From Candidatus Undinarchaeota archaeon (GTDB taxonomy: Archaea; SpSt-1190; JASMDC01), in assembly GCA_964519305.1 (NCBI GenBank), contig CAZFHY010000002.1, positions 64,001 to 128,000 on the forward strand: a stretch of DNA of 64,000 nucleotides, read 5' to 3'. The notes beneath the pieces were generated by a model. That model saw only the letters and a program-made list of their open reading frames with translations. It had not been told where the DNA came from and made no database searches. This document shows, piece after piece, positions 13,955-46,531 of this stretch (position 1 is its first letter; each line of letters opens with the position of its first letter). The translations under genes and the position numbers were made by a program.

Positions 13955-15802
13955 TCAGCAGCGGTCGCAGCGCTCCACATTGTCCACGAGTACTGTGGCA
14001 CCATCCTTCATTACGGGCGTCACCGGTTTCATCACGATCTGGTGTTCGTTCTCGCCAGGTCGGACGAGCACGCGTTCGGTTGATGGGACAACGCGGTACC
14101 CTACGTTCCCGACATCATCCATTGATGGGACCGCGGCGAGTATGTACCATCCGGAGCGGATATGGGGGAAAGAGTATTCGCCCTTCTCGTCGACGACGGC
14201 CGTGTAGCTCAGACCCGGTTCATCAAGCGATGCTATGTGAATGGATATGTACCGCTCGGGCGAACCTCTAACGAACGATAGACGGGCGTTCCCCCTGTCG
14301 AGGATCATGTTCTTGCACCCGGTCGCTGAGCGGGTATTGCACAAAACAGCCGAACGCTTGAGCACCTCGCCTTTGAGGTTAGCCGCCGCAGTGAGGCGCA
14401 CTGTGACATTATTGACAACGTGCTCGCGCAGCTCGATAAGACGGGTGGATAGGAAATACGTATCCGTGTCCGTAGGTGTGGCCGAGAGACGGACATTGCC
14501 GCAGGGGACGTTCTCCACGACCGTCTCGTGGAACGAGCTAGGGAACGAGTGGATGATGGACATGTCGCAAACGTCCATGTACGCTCCGTCAATGATAGGG
14601 GTATCATCGGCCGCACCCAGTACCGTGAGTTTCATCGTGCAGGCGCCCAGACATTCCTCGCTAATGTCAGCTGCAGTCGAGCGGTATATCTGGTTCTCCC
14701 TTACCTCCCCCATGTACAAGACGTTGAATTTGAGGCCCGCCGCCGCAGACACTTCCTGGCCCAGGAGGACCTTGGATGTCTTGCGAAGGTCGACCACCGA
14801 TACTAGGGTGGGCATGGTGAAGTTGTACCACGCCTGCCAGCTACGTATGCAAGGATAGGTACGTCGAGCGACCCATTTATGGATGAGGTCGCGGTTACCA
14901 AAATAATCAACGAAGGTAAGATCTATCTGTGGGCGGACGGGTGACATGCGCCAAAGCACCTCCGCCTCCCGCCCGGTCAGGGTCTCATTGGTGCGGAGAC
15001 GGACGAGGGTCTGGGATATTGCCAGCTTGAGGTCCTCCTCCATAGGGGCGATGAGGTTGCGCTTATGCACGAACTCCTCTCTACAGGTGATCTCAGGGAG
15101 ACCTTCTGGTATCGGGAACCGGGGATCCTGACGCATGAAGTAGATGAAGTGTCGCTCGACGCTCTCGTTCCGGGCCATGAGACCTATCGCCTGCTCTGTG
15201 ATATCACGAAGGAACTTCAGGCGCAGCTCGAGCACCACCGACGGTGTATAGGTCTGTGTCTGGGGTCCAGTGCGGCCATCATGGGTGAGCACGACCGTGG
15301 CCGAGGCACCGACGTATGTGTCGCCGAGCTCGGCCTGTACCCTGACGTCCTTGGTGCGGAGGTGGACCGCTGCATACTCAGGCCGCTTCTCCAGCTCTTC
15401 GAGCCGCTCACGGAGCCGGCTGTCGATCTCATCCTCGAGCATAGAGCGCATAAGTTCGGTCGAAGGGATCTGTACTACACGTCCTCCGTGGAACCAGTAC
15501 GGGATCTGCTCGAACGAGACGGGCGGCACCAGCTCTCGGCGGTATCCTCCATGGGATGCGACTTCCTCGGTCGCCTCGTAAGTTGCCTCCTTCAGGGCAC
15601 TGGCCACGATCTCGTTGAGCTTTACCGCGGTGAACCGCTCCTCTTCTCCCTCCCGATTGTCCGAACGGCGCTTGTCATCAGCGCTCTGTCGTGCGTACGA
15701 ACCCGCGATGATGACCACGATTATGAGGGAGAACGCCATGAGCGCCAGCATGACGAACGCACCGCTCCCGCGATGCTGCTGTACGAGCGTCCTACTCCTC
15801 AA
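13955..15802 (-). CDS. Large surface protein with pilin-like N-terminal anchor (module protein B1)
   Basis: HRG/SGAFVMLALMAFSLIIVVII N-terminus, SHGGY...IPYWF.GG....PS motif, C-terminal GEYSF..I.SGWY beta-sandwich. Paralog of 42006-43814. Confidence 0.75.
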   Translation of the reverse strand: MRSRTLVQQHRGSGAFVMLALMAFSLIIVVIIAGSYARQSADDKRRSDNREGEEERFTAVKLNEIVASALKEATYEATEEVASHGGYRRELVPPVSFEQIPYWFHGGRVVQIPSTELMRSMLEDEIDSRLRERLEELEKRPEYAAVHLRTKDVRVQAELGDTYVGASATVVLTHDGRTGPQTQTYTPSVVLELRLKFLRDITEQAIGLMARNESVERHFIYFMRQDPRFPIPEGLPEITCREEFVHKRNLIAPMEEDLKLAISQTLVRLRTNETLTGREAEVLWRMSPVRPQIDLTFVDYFGNRDLIHKWVARRTYPCIRSWQAWYNFTMPTLVSVVDLRKTSKVLLGQEVSAAAGLKFNVLYMGEVRENQIYRSTAADISEECLGACTMKLTVLGAADDTPIIDGAYMDVCDMSIIHSFPSSFHETVVENVPCGNVRLSATPTDTDTYFLSTRLIELREHVVNNVTVRLTAAANLKGEVLKRSAVLCNTRSATGCKNMILDRGNARLSFVRGSPERYISIHIASLDEPGLSYTAVVDEKGEYSFPHIRSGWYILAAVPSMDDVGNVGYRVVPSTERVLVRPGENEHQIVMKPVTPVMKDGATVLVDNVERCDRC

Positions 15803-18800
15803 TGTTCATCACCACACTCTTGGACGAGAGCACTAGCGACCGACCTTCCACTGGTGCCTCGATGTACACAGCGACTGCGTAGGAACCGGGCGCGAGAGCG
15901 TTGTCGAGGGTACAGGTCAAATGTCGTACCTCATTGGGCGCGATAGAAGCCACGTCGTACCTCTGGACAAGGATAGGTCGTTCAGCGAATCCCTTGGCGA
16001 TCTTCAATACCAGCTGTGCTTGAGGGGGCCACATACTCTCACCCGTATTGCGCACCGAGACGCTCAGATGGTCAAGTGTCCTCTCTTCGATGATGATGTT
16101 CCCGTAGGAACCCTCGTCACTGGTGACCTCACATGTGTCAAAGAGGTACCCGCCGGGATTCTGACGCACGAACAGGTGGGTCTCCGCGCTCGAGAATTCC
16201 TTTCCGGTCACAGCTATGCGCACCTTTAGGAGCTTGGGGAGGAAGATGACGGGGCCACAGAACCGCACGCTGCGTACGAACACCTGGATGCCCTGAGGTG
16301 TGTTCACGAGGTTCATCTCATCGTACGGGATTGTGGTCGTATTGACGCCTTCACCGTAGTCGTTGGTGATCGTAATGTAGAGGTTACGGAAGTCCTCGTT
16401 GCTGAATCCGCGGAGGGCAAGAGTGAGAGTGAAGTCGAATCCTAGAACGCTCTCTGCCTGGAACACGTAGTCGGCGGGCTCCACGGAGACTATGTCGATG
16501 GTCGTAGGCGCCACCTCGTGCAGCTCTACGGGTGGTGCTGTGAGGTTGATGCCTTGACCGAGATGGGATACGTTCACCTCAAGGGCCGCGTAAGGACCCA
16601 TCTCCTCGGGATGTGGGGATCGGAAGATGACGAGCATGTCCCACAGGCCCCTGATGTCGTCGTACTCGGCGGAGTTGACAATCATCTCCTCTCCACCAAG
16701 ATATGCACGAAACGCGTCCTTCGGGAAGGATGTGACAAGGTTACCCCGGTCCGAGAGACGCAATAGGATATGCTTACGTATGCCGAAGTGGATGTCCGTG
16801 TGCTCGAATGTCGTGGGCGCGGCCACTACTCGTCCGTTCAGGTCCCCGGCGTGTCGGGGGTACCACACCTCGATGGTGCGCGCCATTGACCAGACCTCCC
16901 CGTGATAGAACACCTTGATGTAAACACGATAGAAACCGGGTTCGGGATTTGCTTGGATGGGGAACCTGAAGCGCCACCTCCCACTGCCCAAATACTCCGA
17001 AGGTCGTACTTTGGGGAGGCGCTCCCGTCCAACGGTGAACTGGGCATGGAGGTCCCGGGTGAGCTCGTCGGAGAGGTCGACCTGGCGATAGCCCAACTTC
17101 AAGACAAGGTCGAAGGTGACACCCTCAGCAAGGTCCTCCCGGCGTACAGTGAGCGGGGTCAGTCCCTCCACTTTAGCCGTCAGCGTCGGCTCTATACACC
17201 CGTTGAGTGTGCACAGCTGGCTAAAAGCGCAAGTATCCAATGTGTTGGACGTGTCGTCAAGACATGAACACGTCCTTTTTGCACACGTCTCTCCGTCGAA
17301 CGCACAAGCATATGATACAAGACCGGCGCGGATGGAGCATCCGCCCTCGGTAAGGTCGAAGCCCACGTCCCTACCACCCTGACAGCCGTCCTCGGTGCAG
17401 AGGGCCTCCATCTTGCACACGAACACCTCGCGTCGGTTGGCACACAAGCAGGAAGGGAGCTCATCGGGCCCCGGTCTGCACCGCATCCCCTCGTTCAGGC
17501 AGGGCATGGCGAGGTCCGGGCCCACAATGAACTGTCCATTTTGGCAGATACCGAAAAGGCGGTTATCGGGTTCGATGTCGTGGATGATGACCGATTGGCT
17601 ACGAGTCGCCACCGTGCGACCCCCTTGGACGACCCGGATACGGAGCGTGTACTCGCCCCTGCGGGCACCAGCAGGCACCTCGAGGAAGAAGCCGGCACAT
17701 TGCTGAGGCTCGTTGTGGGCCGCAACCATCGAGCCCACAGCGTCCAGTAGGGTGGCGTAGCACATAGCGTTCGACAGATGCGAGAGCGTGATGGAGATTG
17801 TCTCACCGGCCATGAACTCCCGCTTGGCGGTGAAGTTGCCCTCGAGCTCTCGTGTTTTGGAGGTGATCACCTGGAACACACGGGAGAGAGAGTTGCGCTC
17901 TGGGCCGCTCACTCCTTCGGCCTTGAAGACATAGGTCCCGTCATCGAGCTGAGTGGTGTCGACGGGCACCTCTGCATCGCACCCCACAGCGCTGTCGAAC
18001 ACGGCCTCCCCCCGGGCGTCTACCAGTCTCACTGTGCAGCTCGCATCCAGCTTGCGGCTCTGCAGCCGGGCCGTAGTGGTCTCGCCACGGTACACGATAC
18101 GTGAAGGTCTGCTCACCGTTGTCTGGAATGAGATGAACTGCTGGGGTGGAGTGGTTACTGCGAAGGTGAAGCTCTTGTGGGCGACATGAAGGGTTTCCTC
18201 CACGCTAACAGCGAATGTCTCAATCGTGTAATCAGAGGCGACCGGCCACGGTCCCACGTGAACATATGTGGGGGCACAGTTGGGCGATACCTGGGTGAAG
18301 TACACGGCCCGTCCACGTCGGACGTAAGTAAGGCACAGGGTCGGTTTGACCTCAGTGGCCTCGTCGATGTTGAACTCCAGACCTACCGCGGAACGTTGTG
18401 TGGCCGCTGGTGTCGAGAGCATAGGATTGAAGCTGATTCCTTGGATGTCAGCGAACACGCCAACGTTGAGGGTGACGCCCTGGCCTGATACACCGCTCTT
18501 TCTAAACCGCTGGGCAGGGGGGATGAGCACGTTCTCTTCCCAGGTGATCCCTATGTTCTCAAAGAGGTCGAGATAGAGTGGTGTGTACGATACATGGAAC
18601 GAGACCTCACCTGTCGGTGCAAGGTCCTTGAGCACGATGAAACGCGAGATGTCGTCGATGAACACGTGTACATAGAGCTTCTCGTGTTCGAAGGATACGA
18701 AGCAGAAGCTCAGCGCATAGTCCTTGAAAAGTGACCTGCAGACGTACTCTCGTAGTTTCTCCTCCTCTGTTGAGAACAGTGATGCGACCTCGTCCGGTTC

Positions 18801-18947
18801 GAGCGCCATGGTGAAGGAGATATCGGCCCGGCGCATCTCAAGAAGATTGGTCGTGCCCGATACGGTAGCAGATGTGGCCGCCCTGCTCGTAAGTAAGACT
18901 ATCAGTAGAATGAGCGGTAGCGCACGGCCGACCAAGCTCATGCTCAT
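15792..18947 (-). CDS. Large secreted Ig-like/Cys-repeat protein (module protein A1)
   Basis: Sec signal, serial beta-sandwich units (DGTYVF, GEYTL, PGFY, PGSY), central tandem Cys repeats, CARDB-like end. Paralog of 43814-46531. Confidence 0.75.
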   Translation of the reverse strand: MSMSLVGRALPLILLIVLLTSRAATSATVSGTTNLLEMRRADISFTMALEPDEVASLFSTEEEKLREYVCRSLFKDYALSFCFVSFEHEKLYVHVFIDDISRFIVLKDLAPTGEVSFHVSYTPLYLDLFENIGITWEENVLIPPAQRFRKSGVSGQGVTLNVGVFADIQGISFNPMLSTPAATQRSAVGLEFNIDEATEVKPTLCLTYVRRGRAVYFTQVSPNCAPTYVHVGPWPVASDYTIETFAVSVEETLHVAHKSFTFAVTTPPQQFISFQTTVSRPSRIVYRGETTTARLQSRKLDASCTVRLVDARGEAVFDSAVGCDAEVPVDTTQLDDGTYVFKAEGVSGPERNSLSRVFQVITSKTRELEGNFTAKREFMAGETISITLSHLSNAMCYATLLDAVGSMVAAHNEPQQCAGFFLEVPAGARRGEYTLRIRVVQGGRTVATRSQSVIIHDIEPDNRLFGICQNGQFIVGPDLAMPCLNEGMRCRPGPDELPSCLCANRREVFVCKMEALCTEDGCQGGRDVGFDLTEGGCSIRAGLVSYACAFDGETCAKRTCSCLDDTSNTLDTCAFSQLCTLNGCIEPTLTAKVEGLTPLTVRREDLAEGVTFDLVLKLGYRQVDLSDELTRDLHAQFTVGRERLPKVRPSEYLGSGRWRFRFPIQANPEPGFYRVYIKVFYHGEVWSMARTIEVWYPRHAGDLNGRVVAAPTTFEHTDIHFGIRKHILLRLSDRGNLVTSFPKDAFRAYLGGEEMIVNSAEYDDIRGLWDMLVIFRSPHPEEMGPYAALEVNVSHLGQGINLTAPPVELHEVAPTTIDIVSVEPADYVFQAESVLGFDFTLTLALRGFSNEDFRNLYITITNDYGEGVNTTTIPYDEMNLVNTPQGIQVFVRSVRFCGPVIFLPKLLKVRIAVTGKEFSSAETHLFVRQNPGGYLFDTCEVTSDEGSYGNIIIEERTLDHLSVSVRNTGESMWPPQAQLVLKIAKGFAERPILVQRYDVASIAPNEVRHLTCTLDNALAPGSYAVAVYIEAPVEGRSLVLSSKSVVMNIEE

Positions 18948-19401: not shown

Positions 19402-20136
19402 TCATCGCACGATGCCTGCGGGCGTCACGCGTTCCAGACCGTTCTCTGCGGTCCTGACGTACACATCGTTATCGAACAGACCTGCCACGTCGACCGCCAT
19501 CTCTACGAGCTCGTCTCGGCTGTAGCTGGGTTCATCAGTGTACTCGGGGTCCAGTGTACCCTCCGATCCCCGGAACTGCTGGATTGTGAGACGGTCGGCG
19601 CGGATCGTGCGGGCGATGTCCAGGAGGTCCTCCTGTGTGTGGAGTCGCGGTACTACCGTGGTACGGGCCTCAAGGTACTTACTACGTGCGATGTCCTTTG
19701 AACGGCGGACGAGTTCCACGATACCCGGGAACTCCCGGCCGATGACCCGTTCGTATTGTTCTTGGACCAGGGGTGCCTTCACGTCGATAGCGACGTAGTC
19801 GACGAGGTCGATGAGCGCCTTTAACTTGTCGGGATGCGTGCCGTTCGTATCGATCTTGACCAGGAGGCCCATCTCCTTGATGCTCTTGACGAGGGGCAGG
19901 ATGTCCTGGAGCAGTGGTTCACCTCCCGTGATCGTCACAGCGTCGAGGAAGTCAGCAGACCCGCGGAGCTCGGCGAGAATATCCTCTTCACTACGCTCTT
20001 TGCAGTCCTCCCCGCTGATCAGGCTGCGGTTCTGGCAGTATGGGCAGCGGAGGTTGCACCCTCCAAGGAAAATCACGGCAGAGAGCTTGCCGGGGTAGTC
20101 CACGGTGCTCATATGAGCTATCGGAGCAAGGAGCAC
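19402..20136 (-). CDS. nrdG: Anaerobic ribonucleoside-triphosphate reductase activating protein (radical SAM)
   Basis: STVDYPGK, GCNLRCPYCQN, TGGEP, KIDTNG and DVKAP motifs. Confidence 0.9.
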   Translation of the reverse strand: MLLAPIAHMSTVDYPGKLSAVIFLGGCNLRCPYCQNRSLISGEDCKERSEEDILAELRGSADFLDAVTITGGEPLLQDILPLVKSIKEMGLLVKIDTNGTHPDKLKALIDLVDYVAIDVKAPLVQEQYERVIGREFPGIVELVRRSKDIARSKYLEARTTVVPRLHTQEDLLDIARTIRADRLTIQQFRGSEGTLDPEYTDEPSYSRDELVEMAVDVAGLFDNDVYVRTAENGLERVTPAGIVR

Positions 20137-20137
20137 T

Positions 20138-20416
20138 TCACTGGCCTGCGCGCTTGATTATCTCTGCGATGAGCTGATCCTCTGAGGGGACCTCGCCACG
20201 GAACACAGCTTCCTCACCGATGGCGATGGATGGAGTGGACATGACCTGATAGAGAAGGCCCGTGACCATGTCCGTTGAGAGATCTACATGCTTGACCTCG
20301 ATCTTGTCTGAGCGACTGGCCACCTTGTCCACGACATCCTTGGCGGCGGGACAGTTGGCGCATTTCGGCATGGTGAACACCGTCACGGTGACGGATTTCT
20401 TGAGCTCAAGGTCCAT
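20138..20416 (-). CDS. Thioredoxin/glutaredoxin-like protein
   Basis: CANCPAAK, VMSTP and FRGEVP motifs. Confidence 0.85.
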   Translation of the reverse strand: MDLELKKSVTVTVFTMPKCANCPAAKDVVDKVASRSDKIEVKHVDLSTDMVTGLLYQVMSTPSIAIGEEAVFRGEVPSEDQLIAEIIKRAGQ

Positions 20417-20510
20417 GGTCCCTCGCGGAAGGGCCAAGCTTTAAGACCCTATTGGCCGGGCACCGAACCTCTCCAATCCCTTAATAAATCTTGTCAGGGT
20501 CCGCGACCTC

Positions 20511-21584: not shown

Positions 21585-21595
21585 TGACCCCGCCC

Positions 21596-21666
21596 GCGGC
21601 GATGATGAGAGCTTTTGTCTCGCAGGGCCTTTGGCCCGATGATGCGTGACGGGCGATCTGAGCCGC
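21596..21666 (+). ncRNA. Box C/D guide sRNA, predicted target 16S rRNA C1402 (E. coli numbering)
   Basis: Terminal stem GCGGC/GCCGC; C box ATGATGA 21602-08; 12-nt guide; degenerate D' CGCA; GGGCC-TTT-GGCCC hairpin; C' ATGATGC; 12-nt guide GTGACGGGCGAT complementary to the conserved 16S CGCCCGUCA; D box CTGA 21658-61. Confidence 0.85.
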
Positions 21667-21745
21667 TGGCCCCTGACGGTTTAAAATCGGGATACTGCAT
21701 CGAGATTTTTAACATCACAAGTACACAAGATGTTATGGAAGGCAT

Positions 21746-23253: not shown

Positions 23254-23471
23254 TTCCGGAGCTCCTCTTCATGTGGGACCCGTCCCGAACACTTGATATC
23301 ACCATCAATGGCCAGGGCAGGGATCATCATGATACCACGTTCGATAATCTCATCGAGGTCACTGATCTTGCTCACGTCGGCATGCGGATCCAGCTCCGAA
23401 ACGACCTTCATTACCAACGCTTCGAGGGCGGTGCACGCGGGGCAGCCGGTGCCGAAGACCTCGATTCTCAT
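23241..23471 (-). CDS. Small redox-active disulfide protein (thioredoxin family)
   Basis: MRIEVFGTGCPAC...GIMMIPALAIDG....GRVP. Confidence 0.9.
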   Translation of the reverse strand: MRIEVFGTGCPACTALEALVMKVVSELDPHADVSKISDLDEIIERGIMMIPALAIDGDIKCSGRVPHEEELRKWLS

Positions 23472-23498
23472 TAAGCTGTTAACTGGTAGCCAACATTT

Positions 23499-37423: not shown

Positions 37424-40400
37424 TCAAGCCGAGGACATACCATCTTTGGTACGCTCTGCGGTGGAACTGCAGTCACAGTCACAGTTGCGAGGTGTGAGCG
37501 TGCACTGCTCCATGTCGATACGTAGCTGACAGTCGGGCGAACAGCCCGTGCACAGTACGGTGAACCGGCATTGGCCGATCCCGATTGTGGTGTCGATGGA
37601 GGCGAACGCCGCGATGGCCGAGGGATCCGGTGGAACGACAGGTGTCGTCGGTGCGGGGAGCGCCTTGAGCTGGGCGTCCACGACCTCATCGAGCCACACA
37701 CGGTCTGATCCGTCCCGAGCTAACGCCCGGAGGACGTAGGTATCGGGAGCGACGGCGCGGACGGTCTCGGTCCGAACGAGTCGTTCCTCGCCAGGACCAA
37801 GTGCACGGCTGCCTATGAGCGTATCCTCCTTCGAGGTTACTGTACCGTGTTCTTTGGAGACGATTGTGGCCTCGATCTTACCCGAGAAGGGCGTGGCGAG
37901 AGGATTCTTGATCCACACGGCCGCCGTAGCCTCCTCATCGTCCTCAACCGTGTCCAAGACGCGACCTTCAGTATCCATGAAGACCGCGCGCATCACGGTC
38001 AGTACCAGTCTTCGGACCTGGACGAACGCGGAGGGATAGGAAGGAGGACGAGTACCCAGTTGCTCAAGACACCTGGCGGTCATCTCTTTTCCGCAGGTGC
38101 CCGGTACGATGCCCTGCTGTTGTAGGGTGCGGTCCAGTAGAACGGTACCATTAGGGCCGATGGCCTTGACGTGGATGCTCACGACCGAGTCGATATCATC
38201 CTCCTCGGCGGTGAACGGGCCGGTCGGCAAAGGTCGGCTCGGTGCGCGTCTGGTGAGCTTGTAGAAAGCGGCTCCGTTCGCCACGGGCTCGCCAGCCTTC
38301 TCAAGAGATACCGCCACTGCCACGGGTACCACATCGGGATCGATCACGACAGCACCGTTCACCGTCGTCCCCGGGTAGGTCTCGGTGGTCCTCCCGCGAG
38401 GGCCGAGGAAGTATGCATCCCGGACCGCGATGGCGCCAGCAGGCACAACATGTGAGATGGGACCCCGTCCTGTGAGGGTTATCTCGCCTCGTTCATCCAC
38501 GACCTCGATGAACGCCTGGACCGAGACGTTGTCCCGATCGAGCACGTAACTAATCCGACCGAGGTCCAGTCCCTGACCGGGCGCAAGTCGCACCGGGTGT
38601 TCCATGAGTAGCACGATCTCCTCTTGGCAGATGCATCCCTCCTCTGTGCACGAGCACTGTTCGATGATGACCAGATACAAGCGTGCGGTACCACGGAGGG
38701 TGATGCTGCCAGTATTGTTCAGTACACCACCGACGTCCACTTGGTCTCCCTTGCTGAAGACCTGGTTGGGGGCGACCGGAGCGCCGCCCCGGGTCACGAA
38801 CGCTCGGACCGTGCCGACGGGAGCACCTGCGGAGCATGCCGCCTCGCATGCGGTCCCGTTCCCGGGATGGTCCTTGATGCATGCCTCGATGCAAGGAGCG
38901 GCCAGGGGGGAGCAATCGTCGAGACATGCAAGCTCTCCTGATTCAAGGCACGACTCATCGCATGCAGGTACAACATCGTCACAACGCGCAACGCATACGT
39001 CAGCCCTCTCGTCCTTAAAGAGGTCCCTGCACAGCTCAGTGCATGCTCCCCCTGATCCGAACGCCTTACAGGCACGCTCCAAGGGGACTTCCTCGAACTC
39101 GTACTTGCAGCAGAGCCCCGGCCATCGCCGGCACCAGTCGATTGTTACACCGGTGACTATGGGGCCTGCGCACACCGATCCACGAGGGAAGTGAATTGGT
39201 TCAGCACCCGTACTGAACGCCCGCTCACAGCAAGCCATTTCACGCCCTCCGGCGGGGACCGATGGACGGCAGTGCTCGGACGTGAGCAGCCACCAGGATC
39301 CGACCTCGCACACGCAAACACCAAGGTGGGGTTGGCAGTGGGAACGGTCCACCCCGGCGCACACACGACAGACCTCGGTGCACTCCATGGGATTCGAACC
39401 TATACCTGCGAGTGCTGCCTGAACGTCATACCGGTAGCACGACTCTGTGTCTATGAAGAGGTCATCATCAACATCGATGGCGCCCAAGTTATCAACAGCT
39501 CCGCGCTCACGCCATGTGTCGAGCCCTCTCTCCTCCACCACGGCCGCGACCTCCCCGGTAGAAGCGCAGCGACCGCGGTAGTCGCCCCGGTTCGACTCGT
39601 AGCTACCTTGTGACGTAGGTCCGAGGCACCCGGCCGGACCGCTCGTTCCCCCGCAGGCGCCACATAGACGGTGACCGGAACAGTACTCGTCCCAGAGACC
39701 GTTGCCGGGACCGCCGCCCGTGACGGCGCGGATGTCGTACCCTGCACCTGTCTGCCATTCAGCGATGGAGATGTCCCGTACGAAAGCCTCGCTCTGGAGC
39801 AACCGAACCAAGCCCACGAGCTCGCCCTGGAATCCCTCAGATGTGGGGACCTCGCTGAGCAGGACCGCAAGCTCCCGGACTATGGCCTCTGTAGTTGCGT
39901 TCGAGCGATCGGCGAATCCCTGGGCATGCTCGATCCGGAGCCGCTCCGCGAGCCGACGAAGGAGAACGGTGGTCTCGTCGATGCGCGTTACGAGAAGACG
40001 GACGTCCACGACGAGGCCGGTGAGCCGGTTGGCCACCGTACATGGATCGAGCGTCCCCTCACCGAGCACGGCCGAGCCCTCGACGGTACAGACGTCCTTG
40101 AGGTCGGCGGCGTTCTGCTGGCACTCATGCATCCCGCCGGGCGACGGGATGGCGTTCCGCTTCCGACGGGTCACAAGGCTTGCCTGCGTCACCTGAGAAC
40201 ACTCGTGTTCCTCAGGGAGACACCCGGTGACCATCCACGTGTAGTCGATATACCCGTCCTGGCAGGTGAACGGCGGGCCACAGCACTGGCGCTCGGTACA
40301 CGTTCCGGGCTCCGCGTTCATCCGCATCGGTGTCCCTTCTTCCTGGACGATCTCCACCGGTTCCTCTTCCTTGCACAGGTTATCGCAAGCGATGCAGTCG

Positions 40401-42004
40401 AGCACCCATCCCTGGTCGGTCGTTGTGAATATGGTACCGTCCCCGCACCACACATCGCAGGCAGGGCAGTCAACGGTCCATGCGTCGCCAACTGTCCTGA
40501 TGGGCGAGCTCCAGATTACGCCGCTGACCTCTTCCTCGTCGCAGGTGCTGCAGTCGGTCACACCGTCGATGGCGACCAGCTCGATGTCCGACATCCATTG
40601 GCAGGAGTTACGGCAGACGAGGCAGTCTGCCACGATCTCGCCCTCAACGATCCCCACCATCTGTGAATTCTCATCGCACCACGTCGCACAGGCCATGCAG
40701 TCAGCCCCATCCTCATCGATCGGGCTCATCTTCCAGACTCGCTTGTACACGCATTGTGTACAGTCAACGTCCTCGGGCTCCTGTGCGGGCTCTTCCTCGG
40801 GGACAGGTACGCCCTCGCCCTCCGCAGGCGGCTCGCACGTGCGTGGTGAGCCCTCGGTCACGCATCCTTCGATACCCAGATCGTCGGCCCCGCTACCTAT
40901 GGTGCCCACGGGTGCATCGAACACATCGAGCTCCCCGCCAGCATTGCATGCAGTTCTGTCATCGAGCGTGAGGCACTGGTCCGGAGGCACACCTGTGTCG
41001 AAGGGAGCTATGTCGATGTCCACGTCCACGATAGTTCCCTCATCCTCGTCAGCGACTATCTCTATGTCCGCATCCACGTCGACATCGTCGCCCACATCGA
41101 TTCCTGCCCCGGCCTCGACACCGACACCCGCACCGGTGCCCACCTCACCTTCGATGGCAATGCCCACATCCCCGCTGATACCGACGTCCGCGTCCACGTC
41201 GATACCGTCCTCCCCGATCGAGGCGCACACGTTGATATCGACGAAGATGTTGATATCGATGCAGATGCCGATATCAAGACCAAAGCCGTCCCCATCGTCG
41301 CCGGGCTGTGGGAACACGCGGCCCGTATCGAGATCACCGCATGCCGCGGCACTGGCAGCATCGGGCTCCTGGGGGCAGCTCGTCGCGCCCGTAGCGCTCC
41401 GGGCGGCCGCGTTCGGTGCACCTAGCCGACACTCGTGGCCGTAGACGCAGTCCAGGGTGAGGCAGAGCGGGCATGACTCGGCCAGCGGGCCGGGGGCCGA
41501 GTCGGTCGTGCACCAGGCGGACCGGGGATCGTCAGGTGCGCAGATGGTAGTTACGGCCTCTCGGCAGACGTCGGGCCCGAAACCGGGATCGGCGGCCACA
41601 CCGGCAGGTGTAGGGATAGTCGAGAGTCGACCACCGCAGGAGCTGTACCCTTTGGTAGCGAACTCCTGTACCGCACTACGGCAGTTGCTGCACCACTGGT
41701 CGAACCCGAGCCTGATGGAATCAAGGTTGGTGGCGAGCGCATCGTAGTACTGGGAGGCACTTTCGAGGTCGCTGACCACATCGTCGAGGTGTGCGCGCAT
41801 GTTGGCCGTAGTCCGCTCCGGTGAGCAATCCGTGAGGGTAGGATCAAGGCGTGGCCCGTCACCGCCGTTAACGCCCGGTGCCGCGAGCAGCCTCGGGACA
41901 CATATGTTCGAAGCACCGTCTGGGACGCATGCCCCTAGACCCTGTACAGGTAGAACGAGCAGAGCGAGGAGAACGGCCGTCAGTACTGTGTTCCTCATAC
42001 CCAT
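37424..42004 (-). CDS. Giant secreted Cys-rich protein (module protein C, 1526 aa)
   Basis: Signal peptide, helical segments, alternating D/G-I/V beta stretch, DCxxC repeats, C-terminal Ig-like domains. Starts 1 nt after the B2 stop. Confidence 0.75.
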   Translation of the reverse strand: MGMRNTVLTAVLLALLVLPVQGLGACVPDGASNICVPRLLAAPGVNGGDGPRLDPTLTDCSPERTTANMRAHLDDVVSDLESASQYYDALATNLDSIRLGFDQWCSNCRSAVQEFATKGYSSCGGRLSTIPTPAGVAADPGFGPDVCREAVTTICAPDDPRSAWCTTDSAPGPLAESCPLCLTLDCVYGHECRLGAPNAAARSATGATSCPQEPDAASAAACGDLDTGRVFPQPGDDGDGFGLDIGICIDINIFVDINVCASIGEDGIDVDADVGISGDVGIAIEGEVGTGAGVGVEAGAGIDVGDDVDVDADIEIVADEDEGTIVDVDIDIAPFDTGVPPDQCLTLDDRTACNAGGELDVFDAPVGTIGSGADDLGIEGCVTEGSPRTCEPPAEGEGVPVPEEEPAQEPEDVDCTQCVYKRVWKMSPIDEDGADCMACATWCDENSQMVGIVEGEIVADCLVCRNSCQWMSDIELVAIDGVTDCSTCDEEEVSGVIWSSPIRTVGDAWTVDCPACDVWCGDGTIFTTTDQGWVLDCIACDNLCKEEEPVEIVQEEGTPMRMNAEPGTCTERQCCGPPFTCQDGYIDYTWMVTGCLPEEHECSQVTQASLVTRRKRNAIPSPGGMHECQQNAADLKDVCTVEGSAVLGEGTLDPCTVANRLTGLVVDVRLLVTRIDETTVLLRRLAERLRIEHAQGFADRSNATTEAIVRELAVLLSEVPTSEGFQGELVGLVRLLQSEAFVRDISIAEWQTGAGYDIRAVTGGGPGNGLWDEYCSGHRLCGACGGTSGPAGCLGPTSQGSYESNRGDYRGRCASTGEVAAVVEERGLDTWRERGAVDNLGAIDVDDDLFIDTESCYRYDVQAALAGIGSNPMECTEVCRVCAGVDRSHCQPHLGVCVCEVGSWWLLTSEHCRPSVPAGGREMACCERAFSTGAEPIHFPRGSVCAGPIVTGVTIDWCRRWPGLCCKYEFEEVPLERACKAFGSGGACTELCRDLFKDERADVCVARCDDVVPACDESCLESGELACLDDCSPLAAPCIEACIKDHPGNGTACEAACSAGAPVGTVRAFVTRGGAPVAPNQVFSKGDQVDVGGVLNNTGSITLRGTARLYLVIIEQCSCTEEGCICQEEIVLLMEHPVRLAPGQGLDLGRISYVLDRDNVSVQAFIEVVDERGEITLTGRGPISHVVPAGAIAVRDAYFLGPRGRTTETYPGTTVNGAVVIDPDVVPVAVAVSLEKAGEPVANGAAFYKLTRRAPSRPLPTGPFTAEEDDIDSVVSIHVKAIGPNGTVLLDRTLQQQGIVPGTCGKEMTARCLEQLGTRPPSYPSAFVQVRRLVLTVMRAVFMDTEGRVLDTVEDDEEATAAVWIKNPLATPFSGKIEATIVSKEHGTVTSKEDTLIGSRALGPGEERLVRTETVRAVAPDTYVLRALARDGSDRVWLDEVVDAQLKALPAPTTPVVPPDPSAIAAFASIDTTIGIGQCRFTVLCTGCSPDCQLRIDMEQCTLTPRNCDCDCSSTAERTKDGMSSA

Positions 42005-42005: not shown

Positions 42006-43814
42006 CTAGCAATCCTCCGTCGACGTGATGCCGATGTATTCGTCTCCCACTTTCATCAGGCCAAGTGGCTCGAGCTCGATGGTCAGTTCGTTCCGGCCTT
42101 CCGTGACATCGTGGATGAATCCCGCTGACTCGACCTCCCGATAGGGCACTCCAGCTTCGTTCCGCGACGGGACCGCCATGACCAGGTATCGCCCGGGGAC
42201 CACGAACGGGACCTCGAACCCGCCGGCCTCGTCCACCGACACGCGACGTCGGTCGAGCCGGGACGAGAGGGGTTGAAGGATGACCTCCACGGTACCAGGG
42301 GTAGTCCCATCCTGAGCCCCTAGGGGAACGGATGGATCCTCACGTACGGTCATCGACGTCGAGCAGTACACACGGCGTTTCTCCATCATCGAACCCGTGA
42401 CCGTGCTGAATGGCTTGAGCGTGATGAGGGAGCGGATGTTATCGATGATCGTCACCTGCTCCACGTGCTTGGCCAGGGTGAACTGGGCGTCAGGTTCGAC
42501 GATGAGGGTGACACGTCCGCACACCGTCCCCGTCTCCTGAAGTCGTCCGCCACTATAACGGTACTTGCACGAGTCGAGCCACACACTACCTGCGTCCGAG
42601 TTGGTGATCGTGAGGTCGACCGAGCACGATCCCTGGCACAGATCATCCACCTTCTCGGGTGCTGTTACCTCGTTATCGATGGCATTGACGTCCTCGCCGA
42701 TGAGAAGGGGCATCATGTAGAACCGGAAGTCCAGCGGGCGGACCGCGAGGTTCTCGGTGGCCCCGATGGTCCTCGAGGTCGGTTGGACGTCTCGTATCGT
42801 ATAGCGCATGGGGAAATTGATATTGTACTGGACAAAGAACCGGGAGAGACACAGACCGTCGTTCAGGGCCACGGCCGGGAACGGGGTCGGGATGAGGATG
42901 ATCGTATCGGTGCTCTCGTAAGTGCCCTCACCCTGGTTCGCCAAGAAGGAGAACTCGACCTCTCGTGGATTGAGGTCCACGTCCCACTGGATGTGTTCGG
43001 ACGAGTAGGTCGGCGTCTCGAGCACGCGCTTGAGCTCCAGCGACACTGCCAGCTGTGCGGTCTCACGGAAGGGAGTAACAAGCTGGTTGTAGGTGCTGAG
43101 TACGGTCTTTCCTTCACACGGGATGGTGCGCACATCGCTACCAGGAGTGGCTATCCGGGGATCGTTCGTCATGCCGTAGAGGAAGTTCTTCTCCATCCGG
43201 CGCTCTCTGGTGTAGTCGCGCACATAGCGTTCGGCAAGGTCGCGCAACCGCTTGAGGCGGATGGGAAGGTTCGTTGAGATGGGGATGCGGGACCGTGCAC
43301 GCGTCTCCCCTTGCACCTCGACGGGAAGCTCCATCTTGGCGAGGACGTTGTCGTCAACGAGCGTGATGCGTACTTCGGGGACCGCCAGCACGACCTTCCC
43401 TTCCAGTTCACGCCGGAGCACAGCCAGCTTCGTCTCGAGCCTGCGCTTCACCTCGTCAGCGTACATCTCCTGCATGGCCTTGACCGAGGGAAGGTTCACG
43501 ACCTTTCCCCGATAGAACAAGTACGGTACACCGTAGTGGTTCAGACGTGGCACGCTCTCTGCAATGTACCCGCCATGTGACCCCATCTCGAAGGCCGCCT
43601 CGTACATGGAAGTGGCGAGAAGCGTGTCCACTTGACGCTCGAGCTTGATGAGCATCTCCCGAGTAGTCTCCGATGAGATGCGCCCGACCCTGACCTCACG
43701 CTCCGTCCGACTCCGGTACAGGAATACACCGACAATCAGCAGGACAACGAGGGCGAGAGCGATCAGGCCTAGAAGGGTCATCTGGCCCCGTTGACTTGCG
43801 GTCCTCCGCCCCAT
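42006..43814 (-). CDS. Large surface protein with class III signal peptide (module protein B2)
   Basis: QRG/QMTLLGLIALALVVLLIVGVFLY; SHGGY...VPY.FY.G.VV.LPS; paralog of 13955-15802. Confidence 0.78.
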   Translation of the reverse strand: MGRRTASQRGQMTLLGLIALALVVLLIVGVFLYRSRTEREVRVGRISSETTREMLIKLERQVDTLLATSMYEAAFEMGSHGGYIAESVPRLNHYGVPYLFYRGKVVNLPSVKAMQEMYADEVKRRLETKLAVLRRELEGKVVLAVPEVRITLVDDNVLAKMELPVEVQGETRARSRIPISTNLPIRLKRLRDLAERYVRDYTRERRMEKNFLYGMTNDPRIATPGSDVRTIPCEGKTVLSTYNQLVTPFRETAQLAVSLELKRVLETPTYSSEHIQWDVDLNPREVEFSFLANQGEGTYESTDTIILIPTPFPAVALNDGLCLSRFFVQYNINFPMRYTIRDVQPTSRTIGATENLAVRPLDFRFYMMPLLIGEDVNAIDNEVTAPEKVDDLCQGSCSVDLTITNSDAGSVWLDSCKYRYSGGRLQETGTVCGRVTLIVEPDAQFTLAKHVEQVTIIDNIRSLITLKPFSTVTGSMMEKRRVYCSTSMTVREDPSVPLGAQDGTTPGTVEVILQPLSSRLDRRRVSVDEAGGFEVPFVVPGRYLVMAVPSRNEAGVPYREVESAGFIHDVTEGRNELTIELEPLGLMKVGDEYIGITSTEDC

Positions 43815-46531
43815 CAGCATGACACCTCCTCAACGTTGTCCCAGTGGCCAGGATTGCCCTTGATGAGAATGGTTGTGCTATCATGAGCCGACCTTCCGCC
43901 GTCAGCCAGGGTCACTACCAGTGGCAGGAGTGTATCGGGAGGTTCTGGTGGGCACAAGCGCACTCCACTGACGTGGACCCGAGTACCCTCGAGCGTGTTG
44001 ATGATGTAGGTGATCATGTCCGGTCCGATCGCCCGTTCGCCGAGCCGGATATCGAAGCTCTCCTTGGTTATGCCCTCTGCTCCATGGACACGGAGGTAGA
44101 TGTCCAGTTCGAAGCCCAGGGTCGTCAGGGCGTAGAACAGAGGTTTATCCATCGTCCCGGGCTCGGCCCTCTGGATCCTGAGCGACAGTGGTGTTCGGTC
44201 GGCCACGGAGACCTGCGCTCGAAGTGTGCCCTTCCGTCCAAGATGCTCTACCGAAAGGACAACCTCCTCCTTCTCATTCGGTATACCTCGCAACGTGCCC
44301 ACGACGGTCCAGATACCTCCAACACGGTCATACGTGGCAGATACGGGATCGGCGTCAAGGCCAGCCGCCGTAAGGGTGAACGCGCGTTGAGGGACGTGTA
44401 CGAGGTCACGCCCATCGAGGTCACGTACACGCACCATGAGCTCCAGGGGGCTCCCGGTTTCCAGTTCGGTCCTAGAGAGCTTAACGGGGGATATCCGCTC
44501 CAAGAAGAGGATGATGCCGCTGTCGTCCTGGGGATGCCAGACCTCGAAGGGGGATCGGATGACATGCCTGAACCCGTTGTGCTCGACTACAAGGTAGAGC
44601 TCGTGGATCCCGGGCGGAAGATCGCCCACGAACGTAGCTGAAAGGCTCCATGATCCGTCGAACGAGGCCTCGAAACCTGTTGACCTGAGGTCGCTGAGGA
44701 ACGCCTTACCGGTGACCGCGCCCTGCGTGACGACTGGTGAACCGTCGAAGAGAACGGACCCCTTCCACGTTAGCGTTACTCCGTCCGCAAGGACGTTGGC
44801 CCTGGTATGGTTCACGGGGAGATCCTTGATCCTGAACTGAAGGCTCGTTGCCTGGCACCCATCGGGCTGACAGTTCTCACCCTCGGAACATGTGGCTATG
44901 GGGCTACCATTACCGGAGAGACAAACACATCGGTCTGTGCAGAGCTCACCTTCCTCTACACAGGATAGGGAGTCGCTCCCACGTCTAGCAATGCATCTAC
45001 CTCCCGGTTCTCTGACGATGACGTACGGGTCCGCGAGCTTGCGAGGACCGCAACCTTCCGAAGTGCACGGGCTCCCGTACCTGCATACGTCAGTAGCCTC
45101 GTCGTTCGTAAAGCACAGGCAGAAGGGTGTTGCTAGTGATGATGGTGAGCACACGTCACCTTCCGCGATGCACGGGATACGGAGCTCGTCGACGGGCAGG
45201 AATCCTTGGGCGCACAGTTCGTGACGGGCGGTACGTATCGGGGGACGCCACTCTTCCACTTCGATGGGCGTGGCCACGACGGCAGTGAGAACACCCTTCT
45301 CGTATACCTCGGTCCTGATGATGTACTTCCCCGGTGGCAGGGCGTCATCGAGCTGAATATCGAAGGTCCCACATCCGAACGTCGCTTCCTCGCTCACCTT
45401 GATCCCGTCCAGGTTGTATACGGCGGTCGTGCACCAATCCCCTGGAGTATCCACGTGGATGCGTGCCGTCTCCCCTGGAAGGAACGAGCGCTTCTCCATG
45501 TGTATTACGGCAGTTTCCATCCCGGCCGAGAGTATCTCTATGGTCGTCGCTATAGAGGCCGTTCTTTCACCGATAGTGGCGTCCACCTGGACTACGTACA
45601 TCCCGGGTATCCATCCCGATGAGGTTCCGACGGGGATGCGCTCGCATTCAGTCAGCTCAAGACGGTCCATCACGTGCCCGCCCGCGTCCTCAAGTGTCAC
45701 CACACACGAATCGACACGCCTGCCAAGCTCGATGGTGAAGCTCTCCCCCGCGACGACCGGATCGCGGTCAAGGAGCATGGAGAGGTGGAGCTCGACGGGA
45801 CGGATGGTGAGGGGGAGCACAGCGCGCTTAATCACTCCTAAGTCTACGATCACAACCAAGAGCCGATGCTCGTTGTCAGGATCGATTCCTACCGTGGGGA
45901 TGAGGGTGTTCTGACATCCGGGAAGAATGCGTCGTTGTACGATCGTGGTACCATCGAGGACGGCTAGAACACAAAGGGAGCCTTCGATACCGGCGAGACG
46001 TACGAGCTCGCCAGCGGGGATTGGGTCCGGGGGTGGGATGTCCAGTTCCTCTGCAGTGGTCAGGTCCAGAGGGATGGTGGCTGTGAGCACAGTGTCCTGG
46101 ACCCGCTCGATAGCAGTCATGTGGGATGGATATCGAACGAGCAGGCTGCGGGACATCTCCCCGAAGCCGGCACCGAGGGAGAACTGGAGCGGTCGGACAC
46201 GAGAAAGGAAGACGATCCTGTCCGGGCCCTCACCCTCGATGGACTGGATGGATATATCGTGGGGGATATCTATGTCGAAGACAATGTCCTCGCCTTCGGG
46301 CATGGTCACGACGTTAGGTATGCAGGATGACGCTTGTGGGATGCGGCGGCACGCGGTCTTGAGCGACACAGGATCACGAGCCCGTGCGTCGCGTAGATGG
46401 AAGACGACGCTCGAGCGAGCACGACCAAGGGACGTCAGGTCGACAGTCTCCTCGATGTCAGCTTCCTGTGCGGCGTGGATTGGTGTGAGAAGTAAGAGGA
46501 TAACAAGTAGGCCAATCCACCACCTCCCCAT
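43814..46531 (-). CDS. Large secreted Ig-like/Cys-repeat protein (module protein A2)
   Basis: MGRWWIGLLVILLLL signal, PGMY/PGKY/PGIH beta-sandwich units, tandem Cys repeats; paralog of 15792-18947. Confidence 0.78.
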   Translation of the reverse strand: MGRWWIGLLVILLLLTPIHAAQEADIEETVDLTSLGRARSSVVFHLRDARARDPVSLKTACRRIPQASSCIPNVVTMPEGEDIVFDIDIPHDISIQSIEGEGPDRIVFLSRVRPLQFSLGAGFGEMSRSLLVRYPSHMTAIERVQDTVLTATIPLDLTTAEELDIPPPDPIPAGELVRLAGIEGSLCVLAVLDGTTIVQRRILPGCQNTLIPTVGIDPDNEHRLLVVIVDLGVIKRAVLPLTIRPVELHLSMLLDRDPVVAGESFTIELGRRVDSCVVTLEDAGGHVMDRLELTECERIPVGTSSGWIPGMYVVQVDATIGERTASIATTIEILSAGMETAVIHMEKRSFLPGETARIHVDTPGDWCTTAVYNLDGIKVSEEATFGCGTFDIQLDDALPPGKYIIRTEVYEKGVLTAVVATPIEVEEWRPPIRTARHELCAQGFLPVDELRIPCIAEGDVCSPSSLATPFCLCFTNDEATDVCRYGSPCTSEGCGPRKLADPYVIVREPGGRCIARRGSDSLSCVEEGELCTDRCVCLSGNGSPIATCSEGENCQPDGCQATSLQFRIKDLPVNHTRANVLADGVTLTWKGSVLFDGSPVVTQGAVTGKAFLSDLRSTGFEASFDGSWSLSATFVGDLPPGIHELYLVVEHNGFRHVIRSPFEVWHPQDDSGIILFLERISPVKLSRTELETGSPLELMVRVRDLDGRDLVHVPQRAFTLTAAGLDADPVSATYDRVGGIWTVVGTLRGIPNEKEEVVLSVEHLGRKGTLRAQVSVADRTPLSLRIQRAEPGTMDKPLFYALTTLGFELDIYLRVHGAEGITKESFDIRLGERAIGPDMITYIINTLEGTRVHVSGVRLCPPEPPDTLLPLVVTLADGGRSAHDSTTILIKGNPGHWDNVEEVSC

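Follow-up and report, generated by a model that had tools for sequence, protein, structure and literature searches.

Bulky pilin-like subunits carry or cap an adhesive head in bacterial type IV pilus tips, where minor pilins occur with PilY1, and in the pseudopili of type II secretion (GspK-GspI-GspJ). The class III signal motif consists of a short basic leader ending in [KR][G/A], which is followed by approximately 20 hydrophobic residues, and the classical pilin helix is approximately 53 residues long. For the S-layer protein SlaB, the membrane anchor is C-terminal. Modular (bimodular) type IV pilins such as Streptococcus sanguinis PilB combine a prepilin-type N terminus with a large functional module that makes the filament or its anchor adhesive (PMC8179133), and in this they resemble protein B described below. 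PMC4858521 and PMC13705601 describe large non-filament proteins, among them those of the Sulfolobus bindosome, that have class III signals or are encoded in type IV filament (T4F) loci, as well as Ig-fold adhesin-like partners and conserved cysteines that are common in type IV pilus (T4P) loci.

The window analyzed here comprises 64,000 nt (positions 64,001-128,000 of the forward strand of contig CAZFHY010000002.1) from a marine Candidatus Undinarchaeota archaeon (GCA_964519305.1). The host genome is 3.6 Mb in size and the rest of its class (Undinarchaeia) ranges from 0.6 to 1.2 Mb, an observation that is of interest in its own right. Two gene pairs in the window, A1-B1 and A2-B2, each encode a secreted protein (A) and a pilin-like protein (B), and both are accompanied by further genes on the same strand (Table 1).

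Table 1. Locations of the two A-B gene pairs and their neighboring genes in the window
Feature	Coordinates	Strand	Product	Basis
A1	15792..18947	(-)	1051-aa secreted protein, N-terminal Sec-type signal	ORF and translation
B1	13955..15802	(-)	615-aa pilin-like anchor protein	ORF, homology to B2
DUF7343 membrane protein	12923..13915	(-)	330 aa, downstream of B1	Pfam and hydrophobic segments
Single-pass membrane protein	12234..12926	(-)	230 aa, final gene of the A1-B1 run	
A2	43814..46531	(-)	905-aa secreted protein counted from MGRWW; ORF open to 46612	
B2	42006..43820	(-)	604-aa pilin-like anchor protein	
C	37424..42004	(-)	1526-aa secreted Cys-rich giant protein, 6.0% Cys	

The initial annotation described these pairs as a duplicated surface-assembly module present in two divergent versions. 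The relationship between the pairs is clear, as A1 and A2 align with a BLASTP E value of 6e-42 (26% identity over 759 columns) and B1 and B2 with an E value of 1e-38 (27% identity over 586 columns). Every motif that had been listed is visible in these alignments, both for A (EVWYP/EVWHP, YDDIRGLW/YDRVGGIW, HLGQG/HLGRKG, LGFDF/LGFEL, NTPQG/NTLEG, and NPG) and for B (YEA..E..SHGGY...PY.F..G.VV..PS, RLK.LRD, DPR...P, and C.G.C). The two Cys-rich repeats reported for A are marked by 14 invariant Cys in a 22-paralogue alignment (A2 residues 440-559). The proteins are Cys-rich and secreted, as had been claimed, and the start of A2 at position 46531 agrees with the paralogue consensus. Coupling of the genes in each pair is borne out by overlaps of 11 nt for A1/B1 and 7 nt for A2/B2. 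The failure to recognize a characterized family is also upheld, since neither protein is covered by a family in Pfam or NCBIfam (for B, both libraries were used with B1 and B2, and Pfam also with all 21 paralogues). However, the genome contains 22 A genes and 21 B genes rather than two versions, and the window pairs are not mutual nearest paralogues. The two pairs are not a simple duplication, but are two of approximately 21 such pairs in the genome.

The coupling of A and B extends through this larger collection. A same-strand B neighbor is present for 20 of the 22 A genes, and the two genes overlap at all of these junctions; A precedes B in 15 of the coupled cassettes and follows it in five. 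The sister genome G001 yields 22 B matches and 21 A matches, and 19 of the latter are within 400 nt of a same-strand B match, with adjacency taken from coordinates. Pairwise identities among A proteins and among B proteins are strongly correlated (r = 0.93 for 190 pairs from 20 cassettes), and a value this high was not reached in any of 2000 permutations. The nearest paralogue comes from the same cassette for both A and B in 13 of 20 cases.

Other genes also recur with the cassettes. ORFs of at least 1000 aa other than A or B are found within two genes of 13 of the 22 cassettes, compared with 340 of 3186 other genes. Gene C, which begins 1 nt past B2, encodes one such giant protein, and its C-terminal ∼600-1000 residues are common to about 19 other giant proteins of the genome; no Pfam or NCBIfam family was found for it. 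One 2638-aa protein is a fusion of a B-like domain (B residues 51-472, 36% identity) and a C-type C-terminal region. Downstream from B1, the DUF7343 protein is arranged as a signal or transmembrane (TM) segment, an outside domain of ∼195 aa, a TM segment at 224-244, and a cytoplasmic winged-helix domain, where the Pfam match is located (residues 268-326, 6.6e-15). It has four full-length paralogues (327-332 aa), each no more than two genes from a cassette, and a 115-aa fragment of the same type adjoins the degraded C11 cassette. This protein is probably a membrane-bound regulator of the cassette. The last gene of the run overlaps the preceding one by 4 nt, and its product has a signal and a TM segment (142-170) and no Pfam match.

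A series of Ig/macroglobulin-like sandwiches and two Cys-rich knots make up protein A, which is secreted via Sec. The AlphaFold2 model of A2 (mean pLDDT 84.4) is all-beta, and consists of seven beta-sandwich domains, the two knots (residues ∼435-561), and an NPG...C tail. A1 is likewise composed of beta-sandwiches and two Cys-rich repeats, with an additional C-terminal domain beyond the NPG motif; residues 961-1030 give a weak match to WxLIP_HBD, under the Pfam cut-off. The one hydrophobic segment of A1 is N-terminal. Fold matches of A2 are exclusively to Ig/MG-like sandwiches. In Foldseek, A was matched best by CD109, C3, and alpha-2-macroglobulin (E values of 6e-15 to 1e-12), with TM-scores of 0.20 or lower, which means that the domain type is held in common, but not the architecture. 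We rejected assignment of A to the alpha-2-macroglobulin/C3 family, given that A has only MG-like sandwiches in common with it and carries no thioester motif.

These matches could be taken to mean that A, held at the surface by B, acts in the manner of a macroglobulin to trap proteases, viruses, or toxins or to shield against them, or that the pair has an enzymatic or uptake role through the alpha/beta domain of B. Weak matches to A2M_BRD and MG2 (each in one of the 22 A proteins, with E values above 0.005) point in the same direction, as do the conserved GGY, PYxFxG, and DPR residues in the B alpha/beta domain (residues 98-390). The low TM-scores, the absence of the thioester motif C[GLA]EQ from all 22 A proteins, and the lack of any catalytic family in Pfam or NCBIfam argue against such functions, which we consider very improbable.

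Protein B begins with a class III signal, as the initial annotation had recognized for B2. The N terminus of B2 reads QRG-Q and is followed by a hydrophobic helix, and that of B1 has HRG-S in the same position, a variant of the motif that nevertheless passes a crude class III filter. This filter is passed by 20 of the 21 B proteins and by 52 of 3229 ORFs. In the alignment, R-[G/A]-Q followed by a hydrophobic run is found in 19 of 21 B proteins, and the small candidate pilins of the genome carry the same [KR][GA]Q motif. A model of B2 includes a helix of 73 residues (9-81), an alpha/beta domain (approximately 98-390), and two beta-sandwiches (397-471 and 472-590). A charged spacer of ∼19 residues separates the hydrophobic helix from the head, and the long helix with this spacer is unlike that of a classical pilin. 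The C-terminal sandwich is transthyretin-like, as judged both by an HMM match to CarboxypepD_reg (PF13620) and by its fold. Neither Foldseek nor VIA-align matched the N-terminal domain of B to a pilin or any other structure, although this domain was barely probed, as the matches listed were taken up by the C-terminal sandwiches. Matches of B to SpaA, GBS52, and BcpA involve sandwich domains only. Two candidate identities were discarded. No solute-binding protein family of the bindosome type was detected in B1 or B2 (Pfam and NCBIfam) or among the matches of the 21 B paralogues, and the LP.TG motif of sortase-assembled CnaB-type pilins is absent from the last 60 residues of all 22 A and all 21 B proteins.

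The location of the hydrophobic segments bears on whether A and B could build a coat resembling a two-component S-layer, in the manner of SlaA/SlaB, in which A would be the canopy and B the membrane stalk, and for which the paralogues would provide alternatives. B1 has a single hydrophobic segment (residues 11-39), and the anchor of B proteins is the N-terminal class III helix, with hydrophobic segments nowhere else. Moreover, the structural matches that suggest a coat are to generic beta-sandwiches and are tied with many unrelated entries. To our knowledge, there is no S-layer system with approximately 21 diverged pairs in one genome. We consider a coat of this type unlikely.

Whether A and B form a physical complex, as the initial annotation had proposed, was assessed by modeling A2 430-905 together with B2 82-604, using our own unpaired alignments that contain only paralogues. 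The modeled part of A corresponds to the C-terminal half that alone is retained in the shortest A protein (678 aa). An ipSAE value of 0.61 was obtained (0.62, 0.61, and 0.58 in individual runs), whereas the best of three controls gave 0.00; at least 85% of the contacts agree between runs, and partner pLDDT values are at least 76. Of 80 solved complexes, 58 attained the same score mark, as did two of 110 mismatched pairs, although this calibration is only a rough guide here because our own alignments were used. The score reports the confidence of the model and not a measured binding. Invariant A residues P469, C471, C473, and C483 fall in or beside the predicted interface at 467-472 and 479-482, invariant N893, P894, and G895 are themselves predicted interface residues, and invariant B residues G543 and Y545 are flanked by predicted interface residues 544, 546, and 548. 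Binding of A to B is thus supported by the model.

The genome is equipped with T4F components, including T2SSE matches (six over the Pfam cut-off and one under), T2SSF matches (seven over and one under), and four Peptidase_A24 matches over the cut-off. One cassette (G000:C2:5478-10170) is located directly after a T2SSE ATPase (PF00437, 1.7e-14) and a 726-aa protein with nine hydrophobic segments. Matches to the latter were obtained in 195 of 401 archaeal genomes, among them every one of the 17 in the class. This arrangement, together with the class III signals of 20 of 21 B proteins, would fit a long type IV pilus whose tip contains B as a minor pilin and A as an adhesin, alone or together with the giant protein, and in which each cassette supplies a different tip. 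In the two other class members inspected, small proteins with pilin-like N-termini come after this ATPase and membrane-protein pair, in the position that the cassette occupies here. According to PMC4858521, an ATPase/TadC pair can work with several sets of pilins, and archaeal T4P loci commonly include large secreted adhesin-like proteins, as is also stated in PMC13705601. However, the other 20 B genes are outside T4F loci, neither window pair has T4F genes beside it, and no small pilin genes are present inside the cassettes. A charged spacer of this length would also be unusual for a subunit packed in a filament. The pilus-tip location suggested by the initial annotation is not established, because only one of 21 B genes adjoins a T4F ATPase and membrane protein, and we regard it as rather unlikely.

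Distant relatives of B occur in 25 other small archaeal genomes. In the three small genomes inspected, they have the same class III signal and adjoin large proteins with Sec signals; none of the B-like genes in five small genomes is beside a T2SSE ATPase. Homologs of A were not found in any of five small genomes beyond the genus, and a word-based search gave only three close relatives. The large neighbors of distant B genes showed an hhalign probability below 1% to A in three of three tests. Pairing of B with A in particular may be confined to this genus, because A was not found outside it and the neighbors of distant B genes have no detectable homology with A. A broader proposal, which we offer tentatively and as the less probable case, is that B represents an undescribed family of 'anchor pilins' of small-genome (DPANN-type) archaea, each tethering its own large secreted protein by a prepilin-type helix that is served by the conserved ATPase and 9-TM machine. 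If so, then the family has been expanded in this large-genome member of Undinarchaeia to approximately 21 A-B(-giant) cassettes that recognize different partner cells or surfaces, and would be a candidate basis of cell-cell attachment.

The analysis shows directly the homology of the proteins, the coupling and copy number of their genes, the signal motifs, and the fold classes, whereas A-B binding has the support of a model only. The reading we prefer on these grounds, to which we assign an even chance, is that the two-gene cassette encodes a heterodimeric cell-surface complex and is a diversified pilin-anchored module for surface display and adhesion. B would be made with its class III signal and cleaved after [KR][G/A], presumably by one of the four A24-type peptidase homologs. 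Its hydrophobic N-terminal helix could then anchor it to the membrane or to a short stalk resembling a type IV filament, and the putative stalk might be built by the conserved ATPase and 9-TM pair. The charged helical spacer would raise the globular head of B above this anchor. A, exported via Sec and lacking an anchor of its own, is predicted to dock on the transthyretin-like C-terminal sandwich and two helices of the alpha/beta domain of B; the parts of A involved are both Cys-rich knots, the final sandwich domain, and the invariant NPG tail. The exposed binding surface would be formed by the variable Ig-like domains at the N terminus of A, and the neighboring giant Cys-rich protein may contribute to it in many cassettes. 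Duplication of the cassette as a unit, to which the correlated identities of A and B point, has generated the ∼21 diverged versions, which could represent a repertoire of attachment or recognition specificities. The adhesive role is inferred from domain types and cassette multiplicity only, and contact with other cells or a host is a further conjecture.

Attachment of DPANN-type archaea to other cells is largely unexplained, and a family assignment is lacking for most of their surface proteins. A and B are defined here as two new protein families, with a predicted interface that can be tested and a connection to the machinery of type IV filaments, and the 21-fold expansion identifies the A-B system as one of the chief investments that this genome makes. 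Should B-type proteins serve generally as anchors for large secreted proteins, many 'hypothetical' giant genes of small archaeal genomes would gain context.

Comparison with described systems shows where A and B depart from them. The SlaA/SlaB S-layer of Sulfolobus acidocaldarius (PDB 8qox) has its anchor at the opposite end from that of B, which is prepilin-type and has many paralogues; there is no sequence similarity to A or B, and what is matched structurally is a generic sandwich. Like the MG-domain proteins (C3, alpha-2-macroglobulin, and CD109) and the Aureispira Ig-array grappling hook GhpA, A consists of MG/Ig-like sandwiches in a chain, whereas the two Cys-rich knots and NPG tail are peculiar to A. 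Bindosome proteins differ from B, which has no solute-binding domain and has been assigned to no arCOG or Pfam family, and the A-B pairing and expansion are not described in the passages of PMC4858521 and PMC13705601 that were consulted. Pfam revealed no DUF2341/PilY-type domain in A or B, and no sequence or fold match to the tip complexes of bacterial T4P and type II secretion was obtained, but the concept is the same as that of A-B. Relative to S. sanguinis PilB (PMC8179133), B is archaeal and has a head formed by an alpha/beta domain without a fold match and two sandwiches. B also has a dedicated secreted partner in A, and the two are encoded in ∼21 paralogous cassettes, 20 of which lie outside T4F loci.

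All four open reading frames (ORFs) that the initial annotation had assigned to two A–B pairs are found at those positions in the translated window: A1 (1051 aa), B1 (615 aa), A2 (905 aa when counted from its likely start, MGRWW at 46531, and 932 aa if the ORF is taken at its longest) and B2 (604 aa). The genes overlap by 11 nt in A1/B1 and by 7 nt in A2/B2, and the 1526-aa giant protein C, with 6% cysteine, starts 1 nt past the end of B2. The proposed kinship holds for A1/A2 (BLASTP E 6e-42, 26% identity, 759 columns) and for B1/B2 (E 1e-38, 27% identity, 586 columns), and every motif quoted for them is visible in the alignments. Pfam and NCBIfam scans of the four proteins give nothing over cut-off, in agreement with the view that they belong to no characterized family. 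The description as a duplicated module is correct in that the pairs are related, but this is not a simple duplication: BLASTP against 3229 crude ORFs (our own call, longest ORFs first) reveals 22 A and 21 B ORFs genome-wide, and the A1–B1 and A2–B2 cassettes are not each other's nearest relatives. RNA scans of the whole window identify no tRNA and no Rfam family. No RNA run is listed for window 42006-46612, and eight DNA runs from two studies, possibly its source, carry this stretch.

A and B genes are almost strictly paired. A same-strand B neighbor is present for 20 of the 22 A genes, with an overlap at all 20 junctions and with the order A>B in 15 cassettes and B>A in five. The remaining two A genes are a second A inside one cassette and the A of a cassette whose B is an 89-aa remnant, which looks like a decaying copy. 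The co-occurrence expected in other genomes is observed in the sister genome G001 of the same genus, where 19 of 21 A matches have one of the 22 B matches less than 400 nt away on the same strand. Pairwise identities of A and of B are correlated with r = 0.93 (190 pairs, 20 cassettes), a value reached by none of 2000 permutations, and in 13 of 20 cases A and B point to the same nearest paralogous cassette. This shows that A and B diverged in step and that the cassette was duplicated as a unit; interaction does not follow from that alone.

The host assembly (3.63 Mb, 42 contigs), in which the window spans G000:C2:64001-128000, is 99.8% complete with 4.3% contamination, and its archaeal SSU model match scores 1508 bits. 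The 15 genomes of the class Undinarchaeia outside this genus span only 0.6–1.2 Mb, and a passage of one report gives an average of 0.66 Mbp for Undinarchaeota MAGs (PMC7414124). There are 114 crude ORFs of at least 1000 aa among the 3229, accounting for 17% of all residues. Most of these giants have signal-like N-termini, and many contain 5–15% cysteine.

Protein B carries the hallmark of a prepilin-type (class III) signal. In an alignment of 21 B proteins, 19 begin with R-[G/A]-Q followed by ∼22 hydrophobic residues; of the other two, B1 has RG-S and one sequence apparently starts too late. Of the 21 B proteins, 20 pass a crude class III filter that lets through only 52 of all 3229 ORFs, and the other ORFs that pass include small (130–310 aa) pilin-like ORFs with the same motif. 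CarboxypepD_reg, matched in 8 of 21 B proteins, is the sole family detected in the paralogue scans. Because the C-terminal sandwiches dominated the Foldseek and VIA-align searches of B, these give no fold information for the alpha/beta domain (residues 98–390). In a protein atlas, the clusters closest to B2 residues 1–395 are uncharacterized ones of Nanobdellota (0.88–0.90). The nearest named cluster is DUF7286 (0.77), which we treat as a lead only.

A search of 1.84 billion representatives with a profile of all 21 B proteins gave 7415 matches at E ≤0.001, most of them to CarboxypepD_reg repeats of giant proteins. About 30 are strong and full-length, a count that fits the paralogues of this genus. 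One contig carries a 94%-identical relative of B2. Further matches are to proteins of 587–682 aa (E 1e-64 to 1e-17). Eight of these distant relatives were read: all share the GGY, PYW.Y.G..P, LRL, DP..P and Cys motifs, seven have [KR]-[G/A/S]-Q before the hydrophobic helix and one has TGN instead, and family scans assign none of them to a family. Among the 17 genomes of the class, full-length matches are confined to this genus; in a third genome, G009, the profile finds no more than a weak match (2.7e-6), to the helix at the N-terminus. At E ≤1e-6, it hits 27 of 401 sampled archaeal genomes, and the 25 outside the genus are all 0.6–2.0 Mb in size. In three small genomes inspected, the B-like genes adjoin large Sec-signal proteins without Pfam families; the A profile detects no homology in three such neighbors (hhalign probability <1%), and A was not found in any of five small genomes with B-like genes. 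Word-based searches return only two close relatives of B2 and three of A, which is little guide to the true range of either family.

Protein A has a Sec-type signal, read from its sequence, and no other clear anchor. The model of A2 (mean pLDDT 84.4) is all-beta with about seven sandwich domains, and includes two Cys-rich knots (∼435–561) with 14 cysteines invariant among the 22 paralogues. Conservation centers on the C-terminal half: in distant paralogues the alignment starts only at about residue 200–400, and the shortest A (678 aa) retains this half alone. A scan of all paralogues finds no Pfam family. Foldseek and VIA-align match A to macroglobulin/Ig-like arrays (CD109, C3, alpha-2-macroglobulin, GhpA). 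One unlikely rival reading is a macroglobulin-like trap, as these matches might suggest, or alternatively an unknown enzyme. The TM-scores are ≤0.20, however, and a motif scan finds the thioester motif in none of the 22 A proteins; the matches are to generic sandwiches only.

A predicted complex links the two proteins. A2 430–905 and B2 82–604, each supplied as its own paralogue alignment, give a complex score, which is a model confidence and not a measurement, of 0.61 (runs 0.62, 0.61 and 0.58); none of three controls exceeds 0.00. The score mark is reached by 58 of 80 solved complexes versus 2 of 110 mismatched pairs, a calibration that is approximate here since our own alignments were used. 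Contacts agree by at least 85% between runs, and the partner pLDDT is at least 76. On the A side, the predicted interface comprises the two Cys knots, the last sandwich and the NPG tail; on the B side, it comprises the transthyretin-like domain and helices at ∼216–282. The invariant A residues N893, P894 and G895 are inside it, P469, C471, C473 and C483 are in or adjoin interface residues 467–472 and 479–482, and interface residues 544, 546 and 548 lie on either side of invariant B residues G543 and Y545. We know of no similar solved complex, so it seems unlikely that the score reproduces a known structure. Both tails end in cysteine inside the modeled interface; an intermolecular disulfide between them is not claimed, as the B cysteine count is even in 17 of 21 proteins.

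The initial annotation also proposed locating filament genes elsewhere in the genome. Matches were found to the type IV filament ATPase family T2SSE (six over the Pfam cut-off, one under), the platform family T2SSF (seven over, one under) and Peptidase_A24 (four). Directly upstream of one cassette on the contig of the window, on the same strand, are a 767-aa T2SSE ATPase (PF00437, 1.7e-14) and a 726-aa membrane protein that has nine hydrophobic segments but matches no Pfam family. A match to this nine-segment (9-TM) protein exists in 195 of the 401 archaeal genomes sampled, for the most part small ones and including all 17 of the class; the best matches lie within the same class, which speaks against misbinning of this contig. 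In all five small genomes checked, it adjoins a similarly long, divergent T2SSE ATPase. The pair looks like a widespread, poorly annotated type IV filament-like core. In two other class members, our ORF calls place several small proteins with pilin-like N-termini after it, so an A–B cassette of this genus sits where its relatives carry pilin genes. Compared with two class III-like proteins from other genomes of the class, the B profile gives an hhalign probability <2%. Elsewhere in the genome, one ATPase has an N-terminal 4Fe-4S motif, and one peptidase gene precedes a CetZ-type tubulin gene.

This arrangement speaks for a less probable rival reading, a true pilus tip, and according to passages of Makarova et al. 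(2016, PMC4858521) one ATPase/TadC pair may work with several pilin sets encoded elsewhere. The remaining 20 B genes, the two of the window among them, lie at no type IV filament locus, and the B-like genes of the five small genomes are not beside a T2SSE ATPase. Because most cassettes are thus unlinked to filament genes, and because of a charged helical spacer, we weakly prefer a bindosome-like arrangement close to the membrane to a position at the end of a long pilus.

The neighborhoods add a possible third partner. A non-A/B ORF of at least 1000 aa is within two genes of 13 of 22 cassettes versus 340 of 3186 other genes. Protein C matches no Pfam or NCBIfam family over cut-off, and BLASTP against the crude ORFs finds its C-terminal region in about 20 proteins. 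One secreted 2638-aa protein joins this region to an alpha/beta domain like that of B (36% identity to B2 residues 51–472) but lacks the class III helix; it hints at cooperation between B-type heads and C-type giants. A similar fusion exists in G001. Downstream of B1 are a 330-aa and then a 230-aa membrane protein. The former has four full-length paralogues, each at most two genes from a cassette, while a 115-aa fragment adjoins the degraded C11 cassette; a role as a membrane-bound regulator of the cassettes is possible. The gene cluster just upstream of A1 (window 19402-23828) may serve disulfide handling, which could be relevant where so many secreted proteins are Cys-rich. The M14 gene and the metal uptake operon have no evident link to the A2–B2 cassette.

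Locations of cassette-associated and other features in the host genome (G000)
Feature	Location	Description
ATPase + 9-TM pair (L060)	G000:C2:1045-5533	divergent T2SSE ∼765 aa and 9-TM protein ∼725 aa
Cassette beside this pair	G000:C2:5478-10170	A 951 aa, B 658 aa
Apparently decaying cassette (L028)	G000:C11:43654-46800	full A 923 aa; B an 89-aa ORF inside a 120-aa open frame, matching the B C-terminal sandwich
B-like/C-type fusion	G000:C1:22048-29964	
ATPase with Fer4 motif	L061 5462-7678 (G000:C1:44461-46677)	738-aa T2SSE, ferredoxin-type (Fer4, 1.8e-7), then two T2SSF genes
Peptidase_A24 and CetZ-type tubulin genes	L062 4024-5813 (G000:C15:21023-22812)	peptidase gene directly upstream; an A-B-C cassette lies 7 kb away
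DUF7343 protein	window 12923-13915	∼330 aa; outside domain, one TM, cytoplasmic DUF7343 winged helix
Radical SAM protein	window 19402-20136	just upstream of A1
Thioredoxin-like protein	window 20138-20437	just upstream of A1
DsbD_2/CcdA-type membrane protein	window 21746-22459	upstream of A1
Thioredoxin_3 protein	window 23241-23828	upstream of A1
ZnuA/ABC/ABC-3 metal uptake operon	window 34748-37409	beyond C, opposite strand
M14 carboxypeptidase-like gene	window 46724-47626	same strand as A2, preceding it; PF00246, 1.7e-10

The best-supported explanation is that A and B form a cell-surface complex. B would be a stalk protein anchored by its prepilin-type helix, and A a Sec-exported partner docked on B via the conserved half at its C-terminus. 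Facing outward would be the variable sandwiches of the A N-terminus, often together with a giant Cys-rich neighbor, and multiplication of the cassette would have produced a repertoire. An S-layer-like canopy and stalk is an unlikely rival. Passages of Makarova et al. (2016, PMC4858521) describe large secreted proteins with conserved cysteines, adhesin-like or S-layer-like, as often present in archaeal type IV pilus loci, and parts of a 2026 survey (PMC13705601) report Ig-fold adhesin-like proteins as likewise frequent there. The same parts record few DPANN filament loci found with the models of that survey.

The A–B pair is undescribed in the full-text literature searched; the B family or the pair of ATPase and membrane protein may already be contained in PMC13705601 (S10 Fig, tables) or in PMC4858521 (supplementary tables). 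Nothing in the literature searched appears to describe either family, the interface predicted between them, their strict pairing or the 21-fold expansion. The general arrangement, a modular protein with a class III signal and an Ig-fold partner, is of an already known kind.
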